From an uncultured Chloroflexia bacterium (lineage in GTDB: Bacteria > Chloroflexota > Ktedonobacteria > Ktedonobacterales > JADMIN01), in NCBI GenBank assembly GCA_963718915.1, contig CAVRAI010000004.1, forward strand, positions 360,001-392,000: a DNA stretch of 32,000 nucleotides, in the 5' to 3' direction. Positions 22,024-30,447 of the stretch are shown here, piece after piece (within the stretch, counting starts at the first letter, position 1; every line of letters begins with the position of its first letter). The notes under the pieces were generated by a model, which worked only from the letters and a program-made list of their open reading frames with translations, had not been told where the DNA came from and ran no database searches. A program made the position numbers and the translations under genes.

Positions 22024-22993
22024 TCATGGCGAATTTCCGTCAGGAATGTCACGGGTGACTCTGCGCGGTGGGGCTTGTTGGCGTAGCGCCATTGGACGCA
22101 TTGGCAGCGCTGACGTCATCGCGTTAGCGTGCTGCGCGGTGTTTGTATGCTCGATGAACGGCCTGAGCAGGTTGGTAAACTCGGCAGGCACTACCAGCTT
22201 GGTGGATGGCGATGCGCCGAGCGCCTTGAGCGCATCCAGGTATTGCAGGCTCATCGTCTGATTGTCGAGGTGATCCGCGACCGAAGATATCTGCGCCAGC
22301 GCCTGTGAATATCCTTCGGCGCGCAGGATGGCTGCCTGGCGCGCGCCCTCGGCTTCGAGAATCGCGGCCTGCTTCTGGCCATCGGCGACTCGCACTGCGG
22401 CGTCACGCTTGCCATCGGCTTCGAGGATGATGGCGCGGCGGCTGCGCTCGGCGGACATCTGCCGGGTCATCGCTTCCTGAATCTCGTGCGGCGGGCTTAT
22501 CTCGCGGATCTCGACGGCCGTGACCTTGATGCCCCAACGTTCGGTAACTTCGTCGAGTTTGCCGCGCAGGGTGGAATTGATATCCTCACGGCGGGAAAGC
22601 ACCGAGTCGAGCAGCATATCGCCAACAACCGCGCGCAACGTGGTGATCGCGATGCCGCGCGATGCGTTTTCATACTGCTGAACGTTGATGACGCTCGACT
22701 GCGGGGTCGACGATCTTGGAGTAAATCAGAAAATCGATGGACAGCGAGGCGTTATCCTGGGTGATGCAGGCCTGCGGCGTGACGTCGAAGACTCGCTCGC
22801 GCAGATCGGTGCGAATGCCCTTGTCGACGACCGGAATGAGTAGAACCAGGCCCGGACCGCGCACACCCACCAGACGGCCAAGCCGCAGCACAACCAGACG
22901 CTGATACTCCGGCACGACGCGAATTGCCATCCCAACAAGAACGACACCTAGAAGAATGACGAGCACGGCGATCACAAAAGCTATTGGTGACAT
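22024..22993 (-). pseudogene. SPFH/Band-7 (stomatin/slipin-like) protein, split by one frame change
   Basis: 22670..22993 reads an N-terminal TM plus VVPEYQRLVVLRLGRLVGVRGPGLVLLIPVVD...SIDFLIYSKIVDPAVE. After a shift near 22690-22699 the next frame reads SVINVQQYENASRGIAITTLRAVVGDMLLDSVLSRREDIN...GIKVTAVEIREISPPHEIQEAMTRQMSAERSRRA. Confidence 0.8.
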
Positions 22994-23044
22994 GGTGGCG
23001 CCTCCTCCACGAAAACGATAGACTCACGAGCTATGATGTGACAC

Positions 23045-23724
23045 TCAGAGCAGTGATTCATCGGGCAGCCTCCATTCATATGGCCGGTGCACGAGGAGCG
23101 TTATCCCTTCCACTGCGAGCACCTCCACCGTCTCGCCTGCCTGAATCGGCCCGGCTTCCGCGACGGCGCTCCACTCCTCGCCGTTCACGCGGACGGTCCC
23201 ACGTAGCGCCAGGTCCGTGGTCGCCACACCTCCTTTCCGAGCAACGCCTCGCTCCCGCTCTTGCTCGGAAGATGACGGGTACGCAGGACGGCGCGCACGA
23301 CGACGAGGATGTAGCTACTGACCGCAAGCGTGCCAAGGCCAATGAGCCAGGGACTGATAGACCTGTCAGGCGTTTCGGGCGCTGGACCCACGAATGGTGT
23401 GAAGAGGAGCAGCGATCCCGCGACAAAGGCGATGACACCGCCCAGCGCGATCAGGCCAAACTGCGGCGAATGCGCCTCGGCGACGAAGAGTCCGGCGGCG
23501 AGGACAAGGAGCGCCACACCAAACCAGTTGACGCCCAGCATGCTGAATCCCAGTAGCGCCAGCGCCAGTGCGATCCCGCCGATAATGCCTGGGAAGAGGG
23601 TTCCTGGGTGATGGAACTCGCCGATAAGGCCAACGATCCCCAGGATGAAGAGGAGATATGCCACATTGGGATCCGCCAGCACCGAAAGAAACGGCCCTGG
23701 CATCGAGAGAAACGTCATCGGCAT
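23045..23724 (-). pseudogene. NfeD-family membrane protein (partner of SPFH), frame-shifted before its OB-fold domain and lacking an N-terminal protease domain
   Basis: 23185..23724 reads LADPNVAYLLFILGIVGLIGEFHHPGTLFPGIIGG... (the NfeD TM region) up to SEALLGKEV. A shift near 23224-23230 leads into VATTDLALRGTVRVNGEEWSAVAEAGPIQAGETVEVLAVEGITLLV (NfeD C-terminal OB fold, 23045..23227). Confidence 0.75.
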
Positions 23725-23790
23725 CGCTCGCCTCGCAATCCAGCGCTCACCGTCGCGTGGCTGGTCTGTTCGTCAACTAGTGAGGCGTCT

Positions 23791-23937
23791 ATGAGCCAAC
23801 GAGCAACAACCAGCGTCCTGCATGAATTTCATCTGCCGGAGCGAATACCATCTGATGGAACGGTCTATGAAACGTCCTACCAATACGTAGTATACGTCTG
23901 TTCAAAGACTTCAAGGCACACTCGGATCGCACGATGA
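23791..23937 (+). CDS. Candidate small protein (48 aa), unknown function
   Basis: GTGAGG lies 5-6 nt upstream of the ATG at 23791. It reads MSQRATTSVLHEFHLPERIPSDGTVYETSYQYVVYVCSKTSRHTRIAR*. A 7-bp hairpin plus T-run starts 11 nt after the stop. No family was recognised and it could be fortuitous. Confidence 0.25.
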   Translation: MSQRATTSVLHEFHLPERIPSDGTVYETSYQYVVYVCSKTSRHTRIAR

Positions 23938-23947
23938 AGATGAAAGG

Positions 23948-23966
23948 AGGAGAGGCAGACTCTCCT
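23948..23966. terminator. Short GC hairpin AGGAGAG-gcaga-CTCTCCT followed by TTTAT on the plus strand
   Basis: A perfect 7-bp stem read from the sequence. On the plus strand it follows the small ORF. On the minus strand it lies about 140 nt downstream of the GS-like gene end. Confidence 0.4.
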
Positions 23967-24103
23967 TTATGTAAATACGAAGCCCTGTAACAGTACGTTG
24001 CAAGGGCAGCGCTGGCGTTGTCGAAAGCCCCAGGTGAAAGGGCGCTGCGGCGTCTGCAACCGACTCATAAAATAACTGGGCGTCGGGGCCACTTCACCGC
24101 TGC

Positions 24104-25467
24104 TTAATACTTGTAGAAATGCTGGCGCGCCTCCTCCTCTGGCGGCATGTCGGCGAAGTGCTGGCATTCCAGTCGCTTGACCGCGAGGTAGGCTGTCATC
24201 TCAATGGGCCGAGGGCATCGGCCAGCACGGTATCTTGCTCCAGCGCATCCAGCGCCTCGTCGAGCGTGGCTGGCAGTCGGCTGATGTGGCGTTGCTGGCG
24301 TTCTTCGTCGCTCAGATTGGCTGGGTCAACATCGACTGGCGCCTGGATGCAGCTGGCGGCGGATGCCATCCAGCCCAGCCGCGATCAGCCCGCCAAGCGC
24401 CAGATACGGATTGCCGCTATGGTCGGCTGGTTTTAGCTCCAGGTTGGTCGATTCGGCCTCGCGCCCCCAGAATGGCGAGGGGATGCGAATCGCGCCCTCC
24501 CGGTTGTCGAAGCCATAGGCGGTATAGGCGGAACTCCAGAAGTGCGGCAGCAGCCGACGATACGAGTTGGGGCTGGCGCAGGTGAGCGCCAGCAGCGCTG
24601 GCAGATGGGCCAGCACACCGCCGATAAAGTGGTAGCCCAGCTGGCTGATTCCGCCCCGCCCCTGAGGATCATACAGCAGGTTGTGCCCCGCGTTGGCGGC
24701 GCCTGGAGTCCCCACAGACTGAAATGGATATGCGCGCCGCTGCCGGCCTGGTCGAGAAATGGCTTCGCGGCGAACGAGGCGAGCACGCCATGCTGCCGGG
24801 CGACGCCGCGCACGGTCTCACGCACCAGCAGCACATTATCCGCGGCGCGCAGCGCATCGGCGTGGATGGATCGAGAGCTCCTGCTGGCCGGGGCCAAGTT
24901 CCGGCATAAACTGCTCGACCTGAATGCCTTCCTGTTCCAGCGCCGCCAGGATGTCGTCGATGATCTGCGCCGACGAGTCGAAGCCAATGCTGCTGTAGCA
25001 GAGGCTTCGGTCATAGGGTGCGTAGCCGCCGTCGGCGTTTCACGCGCCAGATAAAACTCATGCTCCACGCTTGCCTGTACGGCAATGCCCATCTGCGCCG
25101 CCGCCGCCATCATGCGCTTGAGGAAGGTGCGCGGGCAGGCGCTCCAGGGCTGGCGGTCCTGCTGCGAATAGAGGTCGCAGAGCATCATGCCCGTGTTGGG
25201 CGCGTAGGGCAGCACGACGAAGGTATCTGGGTCGGGCACCAGGCGAAACTCGCCAACTGGCCCCATGCCGTCAACCGCCGCCAGCGCATCGACACCCGCA
25301 AATGCCTGCATGGCGAGCGACTGCCCGATTCCCTCAGCCATGCGGCTTTTCAGGCCATTGATATGGGTCGCTTTGCCGCGAATGATGCCGCCATTATCGC
25401 AGTACATGAAGCGCACCAGCCGCAGGTGCGCCTCTTCCGCGCGTTGGAGAACGGTCTCGCGGTCCAT
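24104..25467 (-). pseudogene. Glutamine synthetase-family (GlnA/PuuA-like) gene with about 5 frame changes
   Basis: The N-terminus is LRLVRFMYCDNGGIIRGK... The catalytic-domain pieces lie in different frames: VEHEFYLARETP | DGGYAPYDRSLCYSSIGFDSSAQIIDDILAALEQEGIQVEQFMPELGPGQQELSIH | ADALRAADNVLLVRETVRGVARQHGVLASFAAKPFLDQAGSGAHIHFSLWG | TPGAANAGHNLLYDP...SPNSYRRLLPHFWSSAYTAYGFDNREGAIRIP...[17 protein letters not shown] | [36 protein letters not shown] | [15 protein letters not shown]...YKY*. The shifts are near 25031-25038, 24862-24871, 24710-24716, 24331-24343 and 24197-24206. Confidence 0.85.
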
Positions 25468-25645
25468 GGCTTTCCTCCGGGCTATGACGCTGCACGCGAG
25501 GCTACTGCCCGCTGGCGTATCATACCTGATGACGACGGGAAGAAATGGCGCGAACGGGTAATGTACAGCGTATGACGTACGATAGGCAACGGCGAAATGG
25601 CTGTCAAGGCCACAGGCGCGGCGCTATGCGACTGGCGCGAGAAGG

Positions 25646-26925
25646 ATGGCGACGATGGAAGCGCTGGATCTGACTGATATTCCGGTCATAGACGAACACT
25701 GCCATGGATTCTACCTGCGCAGACAGCCGACTGATGTCATGGCATGGCGCCGCCATTTCACGGAGTCCGCGGACGAAAGCATTTGGCAGGAACATGTTCC
25801 TTCCACGCTCTTCTATCAGCGGCTGATGCGTGAGCTGGCGACGTTCTTTGGCTGCGAAGCCACGGAGTCGGCGGTGCTTGAGGCGCGAGTCGCTACCAAT
25901 CCGACGACCTGATCCGTGCATTTCTCCAGGCGGGCAACATCGAGACGTTGCTGATCGACCAAGGATATCCGGCGGCTGAACTGCTCATGCCAGATGCGGA
26001 TGTCGCGGCGCTCGCGGGCTGCCGGGTGGGTGCGTTCCTGCGGCTGGAAAACCTGATGCAGGAGTTGATCGCGGAGCACGATACGCTGGATGCCGTCACC
26101 GAGGCGCTGCGCGCGGCGCTCGCTGATGTGCGCGCGCAAGGATATGTTGGCCTCAAGAGTATCGTCGCCTATCGCACCGGGCTGGATATCCGCTGGTGGG
26201 AGAGGTCCGAGGCGGTGGACGTCATTTCACGCAGGCGCGCCAGGAGGCGGTCGAACAGGGACATCTACGCTTGCAGCACAAACCATTGCTCGATACCCTG
26301 CTGCATGTGGCATTCACCGAAGCGGCGCGGCAAGAGCTTCCGGTCCAGTTCCACACGGGCTATGGCGATACCGATGCTGATATGCTGCTGGCGAATCCGT
26401 TGCATCTGCGCGCCGTGCTGGAGCACCGGCCCTATCGCGGTATGCGCGTGGTGCTGCTGCACGAATGCTACCCATACACGCGCCAGGGCGGCTATCTCGC
26501 GGCGGTCTACGAGCAGGTGTATCTGGACCTTTCCTATGGCATCCCATTTCTCAGTTATGGCGAGATGGTCGCGTTTACCCGTGCGGCGCTAGGCGTCGCG
26601 CCCAACCTCGAAGCTGCTCTATAGCTCAGATGCCGTTGGGATTCCCGAACTCCACTGGATCAGCGCGCGCGACGGTCGCCGCATTCTTGGCCAGGCGCTG
26701 GGCGAATCGGTGGCGTATGGCGAATTGACCCTCTCGGAGGCCGAGACAGCCGCCATGGCAGTGCTCCATGATAATGCGGTGCGCCTCTATCGGCTCGGCG
26801 ATCGAGCCTCAGAAGTCATGATTTGCAACGTGAGTAGATTATGTAAAGGTTGGGTACGAGAGACCGAACAGAGCCAACTACTGGCGGATTGCTGTCTGTT
26901 CGTATATACTAAATTCGAGAAATGA
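25646..26925 (+). pseudogene. Amidohydrolase_2-like metal-dependent hydrolase with about 3 frame changes; final frame runs on to 26925
   Basis: ATG at 25646 after GAGAAGG. It begins PVIDEHCHGF (HxH metal motif). The pieces are ...ARVATNP | DDLIRAFLQAGNIETLLIDQGYP...YVGLKSIVAYRTGLDI...SEAVDV | FTQARQEAVEQGHLRLQHKPLLDTLL...PVQFHTGYGDTD...VVLLHECYPY... | SKLLYSSDAVGIPELHW...AVLHDNAVRLYRLG. The shifts are near 25899-25905, 26225-26232 (T-run) and 26600-26606. It is divergent from the GS-like gene. Confidence 0.75.
26869..26906 (+). terminator. Hairpin CGAACAGA-(22 nt)-TCTGTTCG followed by an AT-rich tract
   Basis: A perfect 8-bp inverted repeat read from the sequence, followed by TATATACTAAATT. 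It lies just after the conserved end of the amidohydrolase (..RLYRLG at about 26810). Confidence 0.35.
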
Positions 26926-27117
26926 AGATTTGGTGCCGCCGCTGTTTGTCGCTATTACGTAGATATGCGTTCGTGTAGGGCTTTTCCATTGCTGCCAGGC
27001 ATAATGAGTCAAGAGCACCTTGTTATTCATAGAGATGCTTGCACTTGTGCTTCTGTGGTAATCTGAATCGCGGCCCAGATTTAGATTCGTCTGACTTGCA
27101 CTGTTTGGAGTTTTTAA

Positions 27118-29648
27118 ACGGTCGCCAAAAGTGATGACCTTGACGTTACAATAGCTAAAGATCTACTTCGGGTAATCCGAGAAATTTCTGATGAAAGGTA
27201 TCAATATGACATATTCAGAGCGATATTCAACTCGGCCTCAGATATATCGCATGAATATTGTATAGAAGCAGCCCGCGAATTACATCCAAGTATATTTGGC
27301 GTTGCTGCCTTGACCGAGATAGCTGCAAACAGCGAAACAGAGCAGCAACGTCGGCTGATTAATGAGGTATTGGAACAGATCGCAAGATTATCCGAGCTTC
27401 GTGGATTTGCCCTTCTTTATCTACTCTTGCCTGCCATGAATAGGGTGCCTGTAAATGAATTTGCTCACGAATGATAGAAATTGCGTATGGGATTGAGAAC
27501 CGCGAGGAGCGTTTGGCATCACTTGCAGGTCTCCTTACTTTTACGTCGGTGAACTTGCTAGAGACTACGAAGAACACGTTAACAGAGTACCTGCCCCAGA
27601 GTTTTGACCCAGCTTTGCGCACTTTTATCATAGAACGTATGGCCTCGCAGTTAACGTCAGACATGGTATCGCATTCCCTCATGGCAGGCACAAGTAATTG
27701 GTTTGAAAGATTGGTTCATGATCGTGGGCTGCAACTTCTGATCTATGCGTGGGCATACCTCTGGCGAGATTTAGATCCCAAGGCGCAGCAAGAGTCACTA
27801 CTTCTTGCTCTTCGAGTTCCAGATATGCAAGCACGAGCACAAGCGGTAAGGCACCTCGCCAAATACCTGCCACATAATCTCATTGAGGCGGCATTGCACA
27901 GATCCACAAACTGAGAGATCAAGCCGATCTCGCCCAAATCCTTTCAGCGATTGCGCCTGATGTGCCTGTCGACCTGATGGATGACTTCTTAACCGCAATG
28001 CAGAGACTGAATGGTGGCTATACCACCGATGATATCCTTGAAGCTATTGCACCACGGCTGTCGCTTCAGCAGTGTGAGTTTGTCCTTGATCTCATTGATG
28101 GACTCGACAGATCGTACGACTCATGGGCGAAAGAACGCAATTTAAAAGCACTGGCGGTGTACCTTCCCGACACGCTAGTCGGACGAGCAGTCGAAATCGC
28201 CAATTCGATTCCAGAGCCATCGTTACGGGTAAATGTTCTACTGGCATTGGGTCACCTTCTTACGGCATCGCAATATGGCGAATTGCTAGACACTATCTCA
28301 GCAGCGGTAGGCGAGATCTACATGCCTGATGTCCTGAAACGCGTTGCGTCACATTTGCCGGAAGACTTTTTCCGCGATTCGTCAGTATATGCGAATCGGT
28401 AGATGAGTCCGAGGCGGTGGCAGATGCGCTCGCAGCACTTGCACCTCGCCTGACATCGACGGTCGGATGCAGCTCATTACTTTAGCCCGTAAACTTGTCC
28501 CAATACGAGCGCGCGTAAGGGCTTTGACACTGTTGTCGCCATACTCGACGGATGACCTGATGCTTGAGGCACTCACAATTGCCCGCACATCCGACAAACT
28601 AGACGACACGATTTATGCGTTGCAAATATTGGTGCCGCATGGTGGTGTTCAATGGGAGACAGAATGGCTAGGTTTGGTCATTGACTCTGCGCGTAAGGTG
28701 GGCCAGATTGATGACGGAGAATATGTTGACGAGTATGGGCGAGAACCTAGCCTCAGGCATTATGCTCCTGATCAGATACTCATGCAATTTCTGTTTGCCG
28801 TCGACCCCCGATTTCAGGGCGAATTGCTAACAGAATTGCTTCGTCAACTCCGATTGAGTGCTGATCAAACGCACTCGGCCGATGTCCTTATGCAACTTCT
28901 TGATTATTTGCCTGATGAGTTAATTAAGTCGAATCGTGCGGTATTCATCGAGATGACAAAGCACATCGCTGAGGATAGTTGGATTCAAACGTTGGAAAAA
29001 TATCAAGAGATATTGCCGGTTTCCGTCCTGAAGTGCGGTCTTGGCGCGACCTTGCGTCAAGGCGCTGGCAATAGGTTCTTCGGCGTCCAAGACGTACTTG
29101 ACCTTGCATTATCGGGGACTCCGATTTATCTATTGGGATCCTACGGTAAGAATAACGATCCGGTCGCAGGGGGGCCTGGAGATGTGCTTGCGTTGCTATA
29201 CAATTTCAACTTACTGCGGCCTCGTCGGCAACGCCGTCAAGTCACTGTGATGGTACCGCGTCTAGTTGCTGCAGGCCAGACGAGCCGCGTTCAGTTGAAC
29301 ATCGGACTAGCTGAGGGACAAAGCCGCATACAGCTGGTTCCCACGCGAACCATCCAATTAGTCGTCGAGATGCAATCTGGAGATTCTGCAATCCGTGTTG
29401 AAAATGGAAGAGTGCGATTGGTTGAAGTTGCCTGGGACAAGGACGTTTCGCCGCTATCGTTTGAGGTTTATGTGTCTCAGCTGGGCAGACACTCCCTGCA
29501 CATCAAGATCTCAAGTGGGCATGCTGAATTAGTCGTTCAGAAGGCAGACATTGAAGTTGTCCTCGACGCAGTAGAAGGCGCTTCGTCGGACGAATTCATA
29601 CTCACCCAGTCAGAGTTCAAAGTTGAACCTAAAGATGCTACTCGTTGA
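27118..29648 (+). pseudogene. Large alpha-helical-repeat (HEAT/ARM-like) protein with a beta-rich C-terminal domain, fragmented into at least 5 frame pieces; N-terminal part apparently missing
   Basis: The pieces are 27118-27474 (VAKSDDLDVTIAKDLLRVIREISDERYQYDIFRAIFNS...LLYLLLPAMNRVPVNEF), 27471-27914, about 27900-28402, about 28365-28455 (FVSICESVDESEAVADALAALAPRLT) and 28467-29648 (393 aa, the longest intact ORF). All share a recurring pattern of about 35-45 aa: L-x-A-L-A-P-x-L-P-x-x-L-x(6-10)-I-x-D-x(3)-R. The last roughly 130 aa (VTVMVPRLVAAGQTSRVQLNIGL...SLHIKISSGHAELVVQKADIEVV) alternate like a beta-sandwich. Confidence 0.55.
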
Positions 29649-29661
29649 TTTTCTCCATATA

Positions 29662-30300
29662 TTACTTGCCTTCAGGCTTAGACGCCAAAACGAAAGCAAT
29701 ACCATTAATGAGTGTGCTGAAAGCAATAAGTATGATATAAGCCGTGCTTAACCATGTCCAACCGAACGATCGTATCAGATATTGAGCAACTGAGAATTGC
29801 GCCACTGCCGGAAAAAGCAGCAAGGTGATTATTAGAATTGGCACGTTTGCAAGCCCCGTGAGGATCCGTACGAATCTCCCTTCCAGCCCTTCACCAATAT
29901 CCGTAATGACTGAGCTTATGTCAGGGTATTCCAATGGATGGGCTATCGCTTTATTGGAATATGGGTTTGGGTATCCAATGTCGAAATACAACTTAACAAT
30001 GATCCGGCGGAGCCGACGAAGGTGATTGGAGAGACCAACCAAATAGCTGAACAAAGCTGCGACAATGACAGAAAAGCCCAAAACTATCATCCACACAGGA
30101 ACATGAATTTCAAGTCCAGCAAGAGATAGCTGATTATCTGACTTTGCAATGCCAAACGACAGGAGGATTGTGATAGCGCTACAAACACACTGTAATAGAT
30201 AGGCTCTATTAATGCTTGTTCCGGTGGCTAGCATTGTTTCGTGGATGCGCTCGATGTAATGCAGGGTTAACTCACGCTCCTGAATTGGATATGAATTCAT
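29662..30300 (-). CDS. Orphan 4-TM membrane protein (212 aa), unknown function
   Basis: ATG at 30300 with AAGGTGA about 10 nt upstream. It has a soluble N-terminal helix of about 30 aa and four hydrophobic helices (AYLLQCVCSAITILLSFGI, VPVWMIVLGFSVIVAALFSYLVGL, ILTGLANVPILIITLLLFPAV, WLSTAYIILIAFSTLINGIAFVLA). It is convergent with the repeat gene, with a 13-nt gap. No family was recognised. Confidence 0.6.
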   Translation of the reverse strand: MNSYPIQERELTLHYIERIHETMLATGTSINRAYLLQCVCSAITILLSFGIAKSDNQLSLAGLEIHVPVWMIVLGFSVIVAALFSYLVGLSNHLRRLRRIIVKLYFDIGYPNPYSNKAIAHPLEYPDISSVITDIGEGLEGRFVRILTGLANVPILIITLLLFPAVAQFSVAQYLIRSFGWTWLSTAYIILIAFSTLINGIAFVLASKPEGK

Positions 30301-30447
30301 CCCGACCGCTCACCTTCATGAGTAGTTTCAGCCATATCTCAACTCCATTAGAATATGCGCGAGTGGACGCTACGCTATACAAGCTTAGCGTGTTATATCA
30401 TATTTATGCCTCAGGGAAACACGGAATCATGGTAGCTGACTATTCGC

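Follow-up and report, generated by a model that had tools for sequence, protein, structure and literature searches.

Frame Breaks in a Predicted Solenoid Gene of a Ktedonobacterales Metagenome-Assembled Genome Are Very Probably Consensus Errors

The window analyzed here is a stretch of 32,000 nucleotides (nt) from a metagenome-assembled genome (MAG) of an uncultured Ktedonobacterales bacterium (GenBank assembly GCA_963718915.1, here G000; contig CAVRAI010000004.1, positions 360,001 to 392,000, denoted G000:C4:360001-392000). At positions 27118-29648 of its forward strand it carries a gene of approximately 844 codons (stop included) for a predicted alpha-solenoid and beta-sandwich protein, which the deposited sequence presents as five frame segments separated by four breaks. 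These breaks, and probably also the ACG found at the start-codon position, are very probably indels and substitutions introduced in error into the consensus of a long-read MAG, the gene itself being intact and probably functional. Comparison with an independently assembled, near-identical allele shows, at the level of assembled sequence, that the gene would be a single reading frame in nature and that its breaks are private to this assembly. In the proposed model, the natural gene would be one frame of approximately 844 codons in a soil Ktedonobacterales bacterium, and a stretch of poor consensus of about 6 kb (22.7-28.5 kb of the window) would have produced the frame changes, the cause being, as a guess, that reads were few or mixed in the vicinity of an islet that varies between strains.

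Frame Path of the Repeat Gene and Its Continuous Allele

Six-frame translation of the window places the repeat gene in frame 1 at 27118-27465, in frame 0 at 27468-27896, in frame 2 at 27893-28372, again in frame 1 at 28366-28461, and finally in frame 0 at 28464-29648, where it ends with the stop codon at 29646-29648. None of these frame pieces contains an in-frame stop codon, and each of the frame steps corresponds to one missing base. The positions of the breaks, all given on the forward strand, were set by tblastn of a near-identical protein, P0041, against the window. Break 1, at 27466-27467, leaves two bases opposite one P0041 codon (Pro117), and break 4, at 28462-28463, likewise leaves two bases opposite Arg450. 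Break 2, at approximately 27896-27902, lacks one base of a CA_ codon, and break 3, at approximately 28364-28372, lacks one base at or just 5' of a run of five T residues (28366-28370), the site being probably the GAAGA(A)C immediately 5' of this run and not the run itself. An earlier interpretation of the same DNA made from its letters alone (the sequence-only reading) had placed joins near 27456-27474, near 27895-27905, at the T5 run and near 28445-28455. All four breaks are real in the deposited sequence, and the first two intervals hold and are narrowed by the P0041 alignment; the third break lies where it was expected, probably just upstream of the run, and the fourth is displaced from its proposed interval to 28462-28463.

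P0041 is a protein of 732 amino acids (aa) encoded on a separate ENA contig of 12,332 bp, with approximately 99% identity to the window gene, and it was found by exact look-up of a 141-aa open reading frame (ORF) of the window (27977-28399), which falls into the same 90% cluster. In the tblastn alignment, P0041 residues 2-116 match window frame 1 with 98.3% identity, residues 118-260 match frame 0 with 99.3%, residues 260-419 match frame 2 with 95% (the mismatches lying mostly at both junction edges), and residues 418-449 and 451-712 match frames 1 and 0, respectively, with 100%. P0041 thus runs in a single frame through all four of the window breaks, with only approximately 7 of 712 residues differing from the window gene. 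Three of the differences fall within seven residues at break 2, where P0041 agrees with its distant homologue P0002 (LIEVALQHIY in both), which indicates that they probably reflect a locally poor consensus and not evolutionary change.

The contig that carries P0041 has breaks of its own. P0041 leaves the gene frame at approximately 29250, its last 19 residues being those of window frame 2, and P0037, the copy of the neighboring membrane protein on the same 12,332-bp contig, leaves its frame at approximately 29810, with the 163 preceding residues equal to the window save for one substitution and the tail after the break matching the window's other frame at 100% identity. At both of these sites it is the window reading that is conserved in distant homologues (P0002 for P0041, and P0038 for P0037). 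Different one-base breaks in two assemblies, on a background of approximately 99% identity, are the signature of consensus error and not of gene decay. The lesions expected to recur in an independent sequence of the same lineage, were the gene a pseudogene, do not do so, P0041 being continuous.

The colinearity of the pieces is further supported by P0002, an intact homologue of 842 aa, which was recovered at 40% identity over residues 451-839 when the last window piece was searched exhaustively with phmmer against 1.8 billion cluster representatives of approximately 15 billion proteins. tblastn of P0002 against the window matched the pieces in order (residues 8-116, 115-260, 260-415 and 449-838), and a read-through of the window gene, with an X placed at each break, aligned to P0002 as one BLASTP segment, from 8-838 to 8-838, with 40.6% identity and 2 gap columns in 832. 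The proposal of the sequence-only reading that the pieces form one gene of approximately 840 codons is therefore borne out, as both P0002 and P0041 are colinear with all of them. Its view that only frame-shifted pieces of the gene survive does not hold, given that P0041 is continuous at all junctions and that the surrounding 6 kb are error-dense. Nor is the suggested separate expression of the final 393-aa ORF supported, and the question falls away if the breaks are artefacts.

The start of the gene is also defined by these homologues. The first residue of P0002 corresponds to window position 27118, directly after an in-frame TAA at 27115-27117, and the Met of P0041 aligns with the ACG at 27118-27120; the earliest canonical start of the first frame segment is a TTG at 27310. 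A fifth frame shift, at an ATG at 27134 in frame 2, was considered for the start and dropped on account of this alignment of the P0041 Met. Because P0002 and P0041 both begin at 27118, after the TAA, the idea that a 5' part with an NTPase (nucleoside triphosphatase) was lost or had degenerated in 26930-27117 is unsupported, and the N-termini of both proteins begin directly with repeats. Consistent with the earlier statement that an NTPase domain is missing, scans of the pieces, P0002 and P0041 against Pfam, NCBIfam and PADLOC gave no NTPase match. Judged from these homologues, the absence of an NTPase is apparently the native architecture of the repeat protein.

The Error-Dense Stretch and Its Backbone Genes

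The breaks of the repeat gene are part of a longer stretch, from 22699 to 28463, in which approximately 14 frame changes, each of 1-2 nt and specific to the window, cut five genes. As assigned by three-way alignments of the window with the same-genus genomes G002 and G005, these indels lie in an SPFH-like gene (22699), in NfeD (23236), in a GS-like gene (24204, 24339, 24704, 24866, 25036 and perhaps 25486) and in an amidohydrolase gene (25887, 26220 and 26604), in addition to the repeat gene. The first four are consecutive, conserved backbone genes (22024-26800) with intact orthologues in G001, G002 and G005. Across the backbone ORFs, 8-9 frame switches separate the window from each of the two same-genus genomes, against 1-3 between the relatives themselves. 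No frame change was found between 28464 and 32000. The breaks end in the middle of the repeat gene, at 28463, and its remaining 1.2 kb are 100% identical to P0041.

The substitution pattern in this stretch differs little from that of intact genes. The window branches of the broken GS-like and amidohydrolase genes are 1.16 and 1.40 times the mean of the relatives, within the 0.97-1.55 of intact genes, and their synonymous/non-synonymous counts on the window branch are 41/16 and 53/17, compared with 38-47/7-12 in the relatives. These counts show the two genes as apparently remaining under purifying selection. The coding indels in the window are all of 1-2 nt, whereas of the indels specific to the branch of G005, a MAG that its k141 contig names mark as short-read, half span at least 3 nt; the backbone indels of the window are of both signs. 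The excess of substitutions, the nonsense codons and the larger indels by which relaxed selection would be recognized were not found in the broken genes. In bacterial pseudogenes, substitutions generally outnumber small indels several-fold, and many longer deletions are found among the indels. The combination seen here, of many tiny indels with few substitutions and no nonsense codons, is the pattern that sequencing error produces.

Frame Breaks in the Rest of the Assembly

G000 comprises 5.45 Mb in 17 contigs with 61.5% G+C, and frame breaks in it extend to essential genes. The genes rpoB, rpoC, gyrA and secA are intact; the best match to ileS (C15:452213-454805) is split between two frames at approximately 453150, and one copy of dnaE (C4:439734-443771) has its middle, profile positions 187-750, in another frame than its ends, with a second copy on contig C13 intact. 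Comparison of G002:C24:582001-982000 with G000:C4:100001-700000 aligned 348 kb of contig C4 to G002, a Microflora Danica MAG, and yielded 289 isolated frame-changing indels of 1-2 nt in conserved context, of which 56 make G000 look broken and 119 make G002 look broken. The densest cluster of G000 breaks, at C4:384204-386605, is the one at window positions 24204-26605. Dense break clusters were also observed in G002 (MFD05502.bin.2.92), opposite C4:318-321 kb, 509-512 kb and 545-548 kb.

For the Microflora Danica project, assemblies were built from Nanopore reads only and polished once with Medaka (PMC12313526). The breaks of G000 share with the frameshift clusters of low-coverage Nanopore-only MAGs that they are private, clumped indels of 1-2 nt and of both signs, without accompanying substitutions, that they differ between assemblies of the same locus, and that they affect essential genes. 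Unlike the known clusters of this kind, G000 is placed here by its break pattern and not by platform or coverage. Caution is therefore called for in that frame-broken gene clusters in G000 and in the Nanopore-derived G002 are not to be taken as decay, recoding or split genes. Such genes will appear in the output of annotation pipelines as several short ORFs, and the database entries for the 844-aa protein are fragments of 141 aa and 362 aa.

Alternative Explanations of the Breaks

The strongest competing explanation is that of a real, recent and strain-specific pseudogene, in which the islet gene and the neighboring backbone genes were inactivated in this strain and stayed intact in the sister strain that is represented by the P0041 contig. 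This is considered unlikely. It takes the deposited sequence at its word, since the breaks are truly present there, and it accounts for the ACG at the start-codon position; joint decay is common among the genes of accessory islets and dispensable operons, and a third homologue, P0003 and P0004 on one ENA contig of 8,640 bp, is split as well. It would, however, need approximately 14 frame-changing indels within 6 kb with neither nonsense codons, nor coding indels longer than 2 nt, nor a longer branch, and five lesions in a gene that otherwise differs from the intact allele at about 1% of its residues. It would further have to accommodate independent breaks of the sister contig in the same gene and its neighbor, a series of lesions that stops in mid-gene before 1.2 kb of unchanged sequence, and the frame-split essential genes elsewhere in G000.

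It has to be noted that several observations weigh against consensus error as the origin of the breaks. P0041 shows the existence of an intact allele at 99% identity and not its presence in the sequenced strain, and the probable artefact has been deduced from assembled sequences. A long-read origin of G000 is a possibility suggested by its small number of contigs for its size. Breaks are much denser here, at approximately 1 per 400 bp, than in the genome on average (approximately 1 per 6 kb). All four breaks in the repeat gene go in the same direction, which fits deletion-biased errors and is a weak signal. The broken backbone genes show a slight non-synonymous excess (42/117 compared with 87/348), which fits mild relaxation and is thus also a point in favor of the pseudogene. 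The function proposed for the protein is deduced from the fold, the repeat homology and the gene neighborhood.

Decoding of the breaks by programmed ribosomal frameshifting or transcriptional slippage, such that one protein is made after all, would agree with all steps being -1 and with one of them adjoining the T5 run, but can be practically dismissed, since a slippery heptamer is lacking at three of the four sites, P0041, which is near-identical, and P0002, which is distant, are both single-frame, unrelated neighboring genes carry indels of both signs, and four programmed frameshifts in one bacterial gene are, to our knowledge, without precedent.

The Encoded Protein

The repeat protein is predicted from structural models to be a HEAT/ARM-like alpha-solenoid of approximately 700 aa followed by a macroglobulin-like (MG-like) beta-sandwich, in agreement with the helical-repeat body and beta-sandwich tail that the sequence-only reading had described, a claim on which the AlphaFold models and the fold searches concur. 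The AlphaFold2 model of P0002, which was made from a shallow alignment and has a mean predicted local distance difference test score (pLDDT) of 62, shows approximately 42 helices over residues 10-696 with a spacing of approximately 16 aa, followed by 8-9 strands; the helix pairs have a period of approximately 32 aa. In this model, of low to moderate confidence, the helices form the tandem antiparallel pairs of approximately 30-45 aa, stacked into a solenoid, that define HEAT/ARM proteins. The Foldseek matches of the model are all HEAT/ARM solenoids, with E-values from 5e-7 to 1e-4 and TM-scores of 0.15-0.35. Eukaryotic HEAT/ARM solenoids, such as karyopherins, Integrator subunits, RRP12 and SF3B1, are of the same fold class, but with 10-14% identity, low TM-scores and a model pLDDT of 62 the likeness is one of fold class and not of family membership.

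At the sequence level, no Pfam HEAT, ARM or other repeat profile matched at E ≤ 0.01, and scans of the pieces, P0002, P0041 and the membrane protein against Pfam, NCBIfam, PADLOC and PHROGs returned no significant family. Internal repeats are not visible in a BLASTP self-comparison, so that the periodicity is taken from the distances between helices in the model and from multi-stretch HMMER matches. The ESM Atlas gave no usable match, and a profile search of PDB sequences found nothing.

The multi-stretch matches are to NB-ARC and NACHT/NPHP3_N proteins, in the regions that follow the NTPase, with 4-8 stretches in each protein and E-values from 2.6e-13 to 1e-4 (phmmer/HMMER), which upholds the earlier assignment of the repeats to the type found C-terminal to STAND NTPases. 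Bacterial STAND NTPases of 1150-1760 aa (e.g. P0005, P0007, P0008, P0009 and P0026) carry the same type of repeats in their C-terminal arms, and one matched STAND protein has a trypsin-like N-terminal domain. In contrast to these, the repeat protein has neither a P-loop NTPase nor an effector domain, repeats start at the N-terminus of it and of its two full-length relatives, and the repeat protein ends in the MG-like beta-sandwich. A match to the NCBIfam model of HyoA, a NACHT antiphage protein, lies in the post-NTPase region of HyoA and is below threshold (E 0.0056; 14 bits against a cut-off of 1200).

The C-terminal all-beta domain of approximately 140 aa (29223-29645, forward strand) is predicted, by structure model and fold search, to be an MG-like sandwich of the immunoglobulin (Ig) type. 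When the last 192 residues of the window protein were modelled, they gave a confident all-beta domain with a pLDDT of approximately 80-90. VIA-align superposed it on the MG domains of complement C3, C4 and C5 and of bacterial alpha-2-macroglobulin with Z-scores of 10-11 and a root-mean-square deviation of 2.3-2.5 Å over 101-113 residues, although many other Ig-like sandwiches also reach Z 8-9. The C-terminal region would therefore share the MG-type fold, but unlike complement or alpha-2-macroglobulin the repeat protein has a single such domain, with 11-20% identity, and has no thioester or bait region. The beta domain has no match to Pfam A2M.

The family appears to be very rare, the sequence searches having yielded one full-length but distant relative and a second, broken one. 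Its members are P0002, the allele shared by P0041 and the window, and the homologue made up of P0003 and P0004, i.e. approximately three loci in the 1.8 billion representatives. P0003 and P0004 are consecutive short fragments, frame-split and approximately 42-48% identical to the window gene. Searches of 60 related genomes, of the GTDB species representatives and of JGI metagenome contigs yielded no homologue, the gene's own genome has no paralogue, and a search for longer homologous proteins with a 399-aa piece found none, P0002 being missed too. As an intact gene with STAND-type sensor repeats, no NTPase and an MG-like end, it would be a small but real addition to the solenoid architectures of Chloroflexota.

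The Islet and the Membrane-Protein Neighbor

The repeat gene lies in an islet of 48% G+C (26797-30443), between the amidohydrolase gene and a radical SAM gene, that is missing from the same-genus relatives. No notable flanking direct repeats, tRNA-like target or integrase ORF marks the islet as a mobile element. The intact gene of an orphan membrane protein of 212 aa with four transmembrane segments (4-TM) lies on the reverse strand at 29662-30300, in tail-to-tail orientation to the repeat gene, and the two genes are found together on the 12,332-bp ENA contig as well. The only relatives of the membrane protein are P0038, with 70% identity, and P0037, its frame-broken, near-identical copy.

By inference only, the repeat protein may serve as a STAND-sensor-type binding scaffold that lacks the NTPase switch, possibly forming an accessory module with the 4-TM neighbor. 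That the islet is an undescribed two-gene module of a solenoid-MG protein and a 4-TM protein, which would serve Ktedonobacteria as an NTPase-less conflict/defence or surface-recognition system, is a speculative suggestion to which a low probability is assigned.

Between their amidohydrolase and radical SAM genes, the relatives have other cargo, which amounts to 0.63 kb in G002 and to 2.1 kb in G005. The cargo of G002 (L010:4070-4702) consists of two small ORFs, of 89 aa and approximately 110 aa; a toxin-antitoxin pair was considered for them, but size alone fits, there is no Pfam match, and no such claim is made. The cargo of G005 (C8:30565-32665) holds the same two ORFs and, in addition, a 388-aa repeat protein that resembles a beta-propeller.

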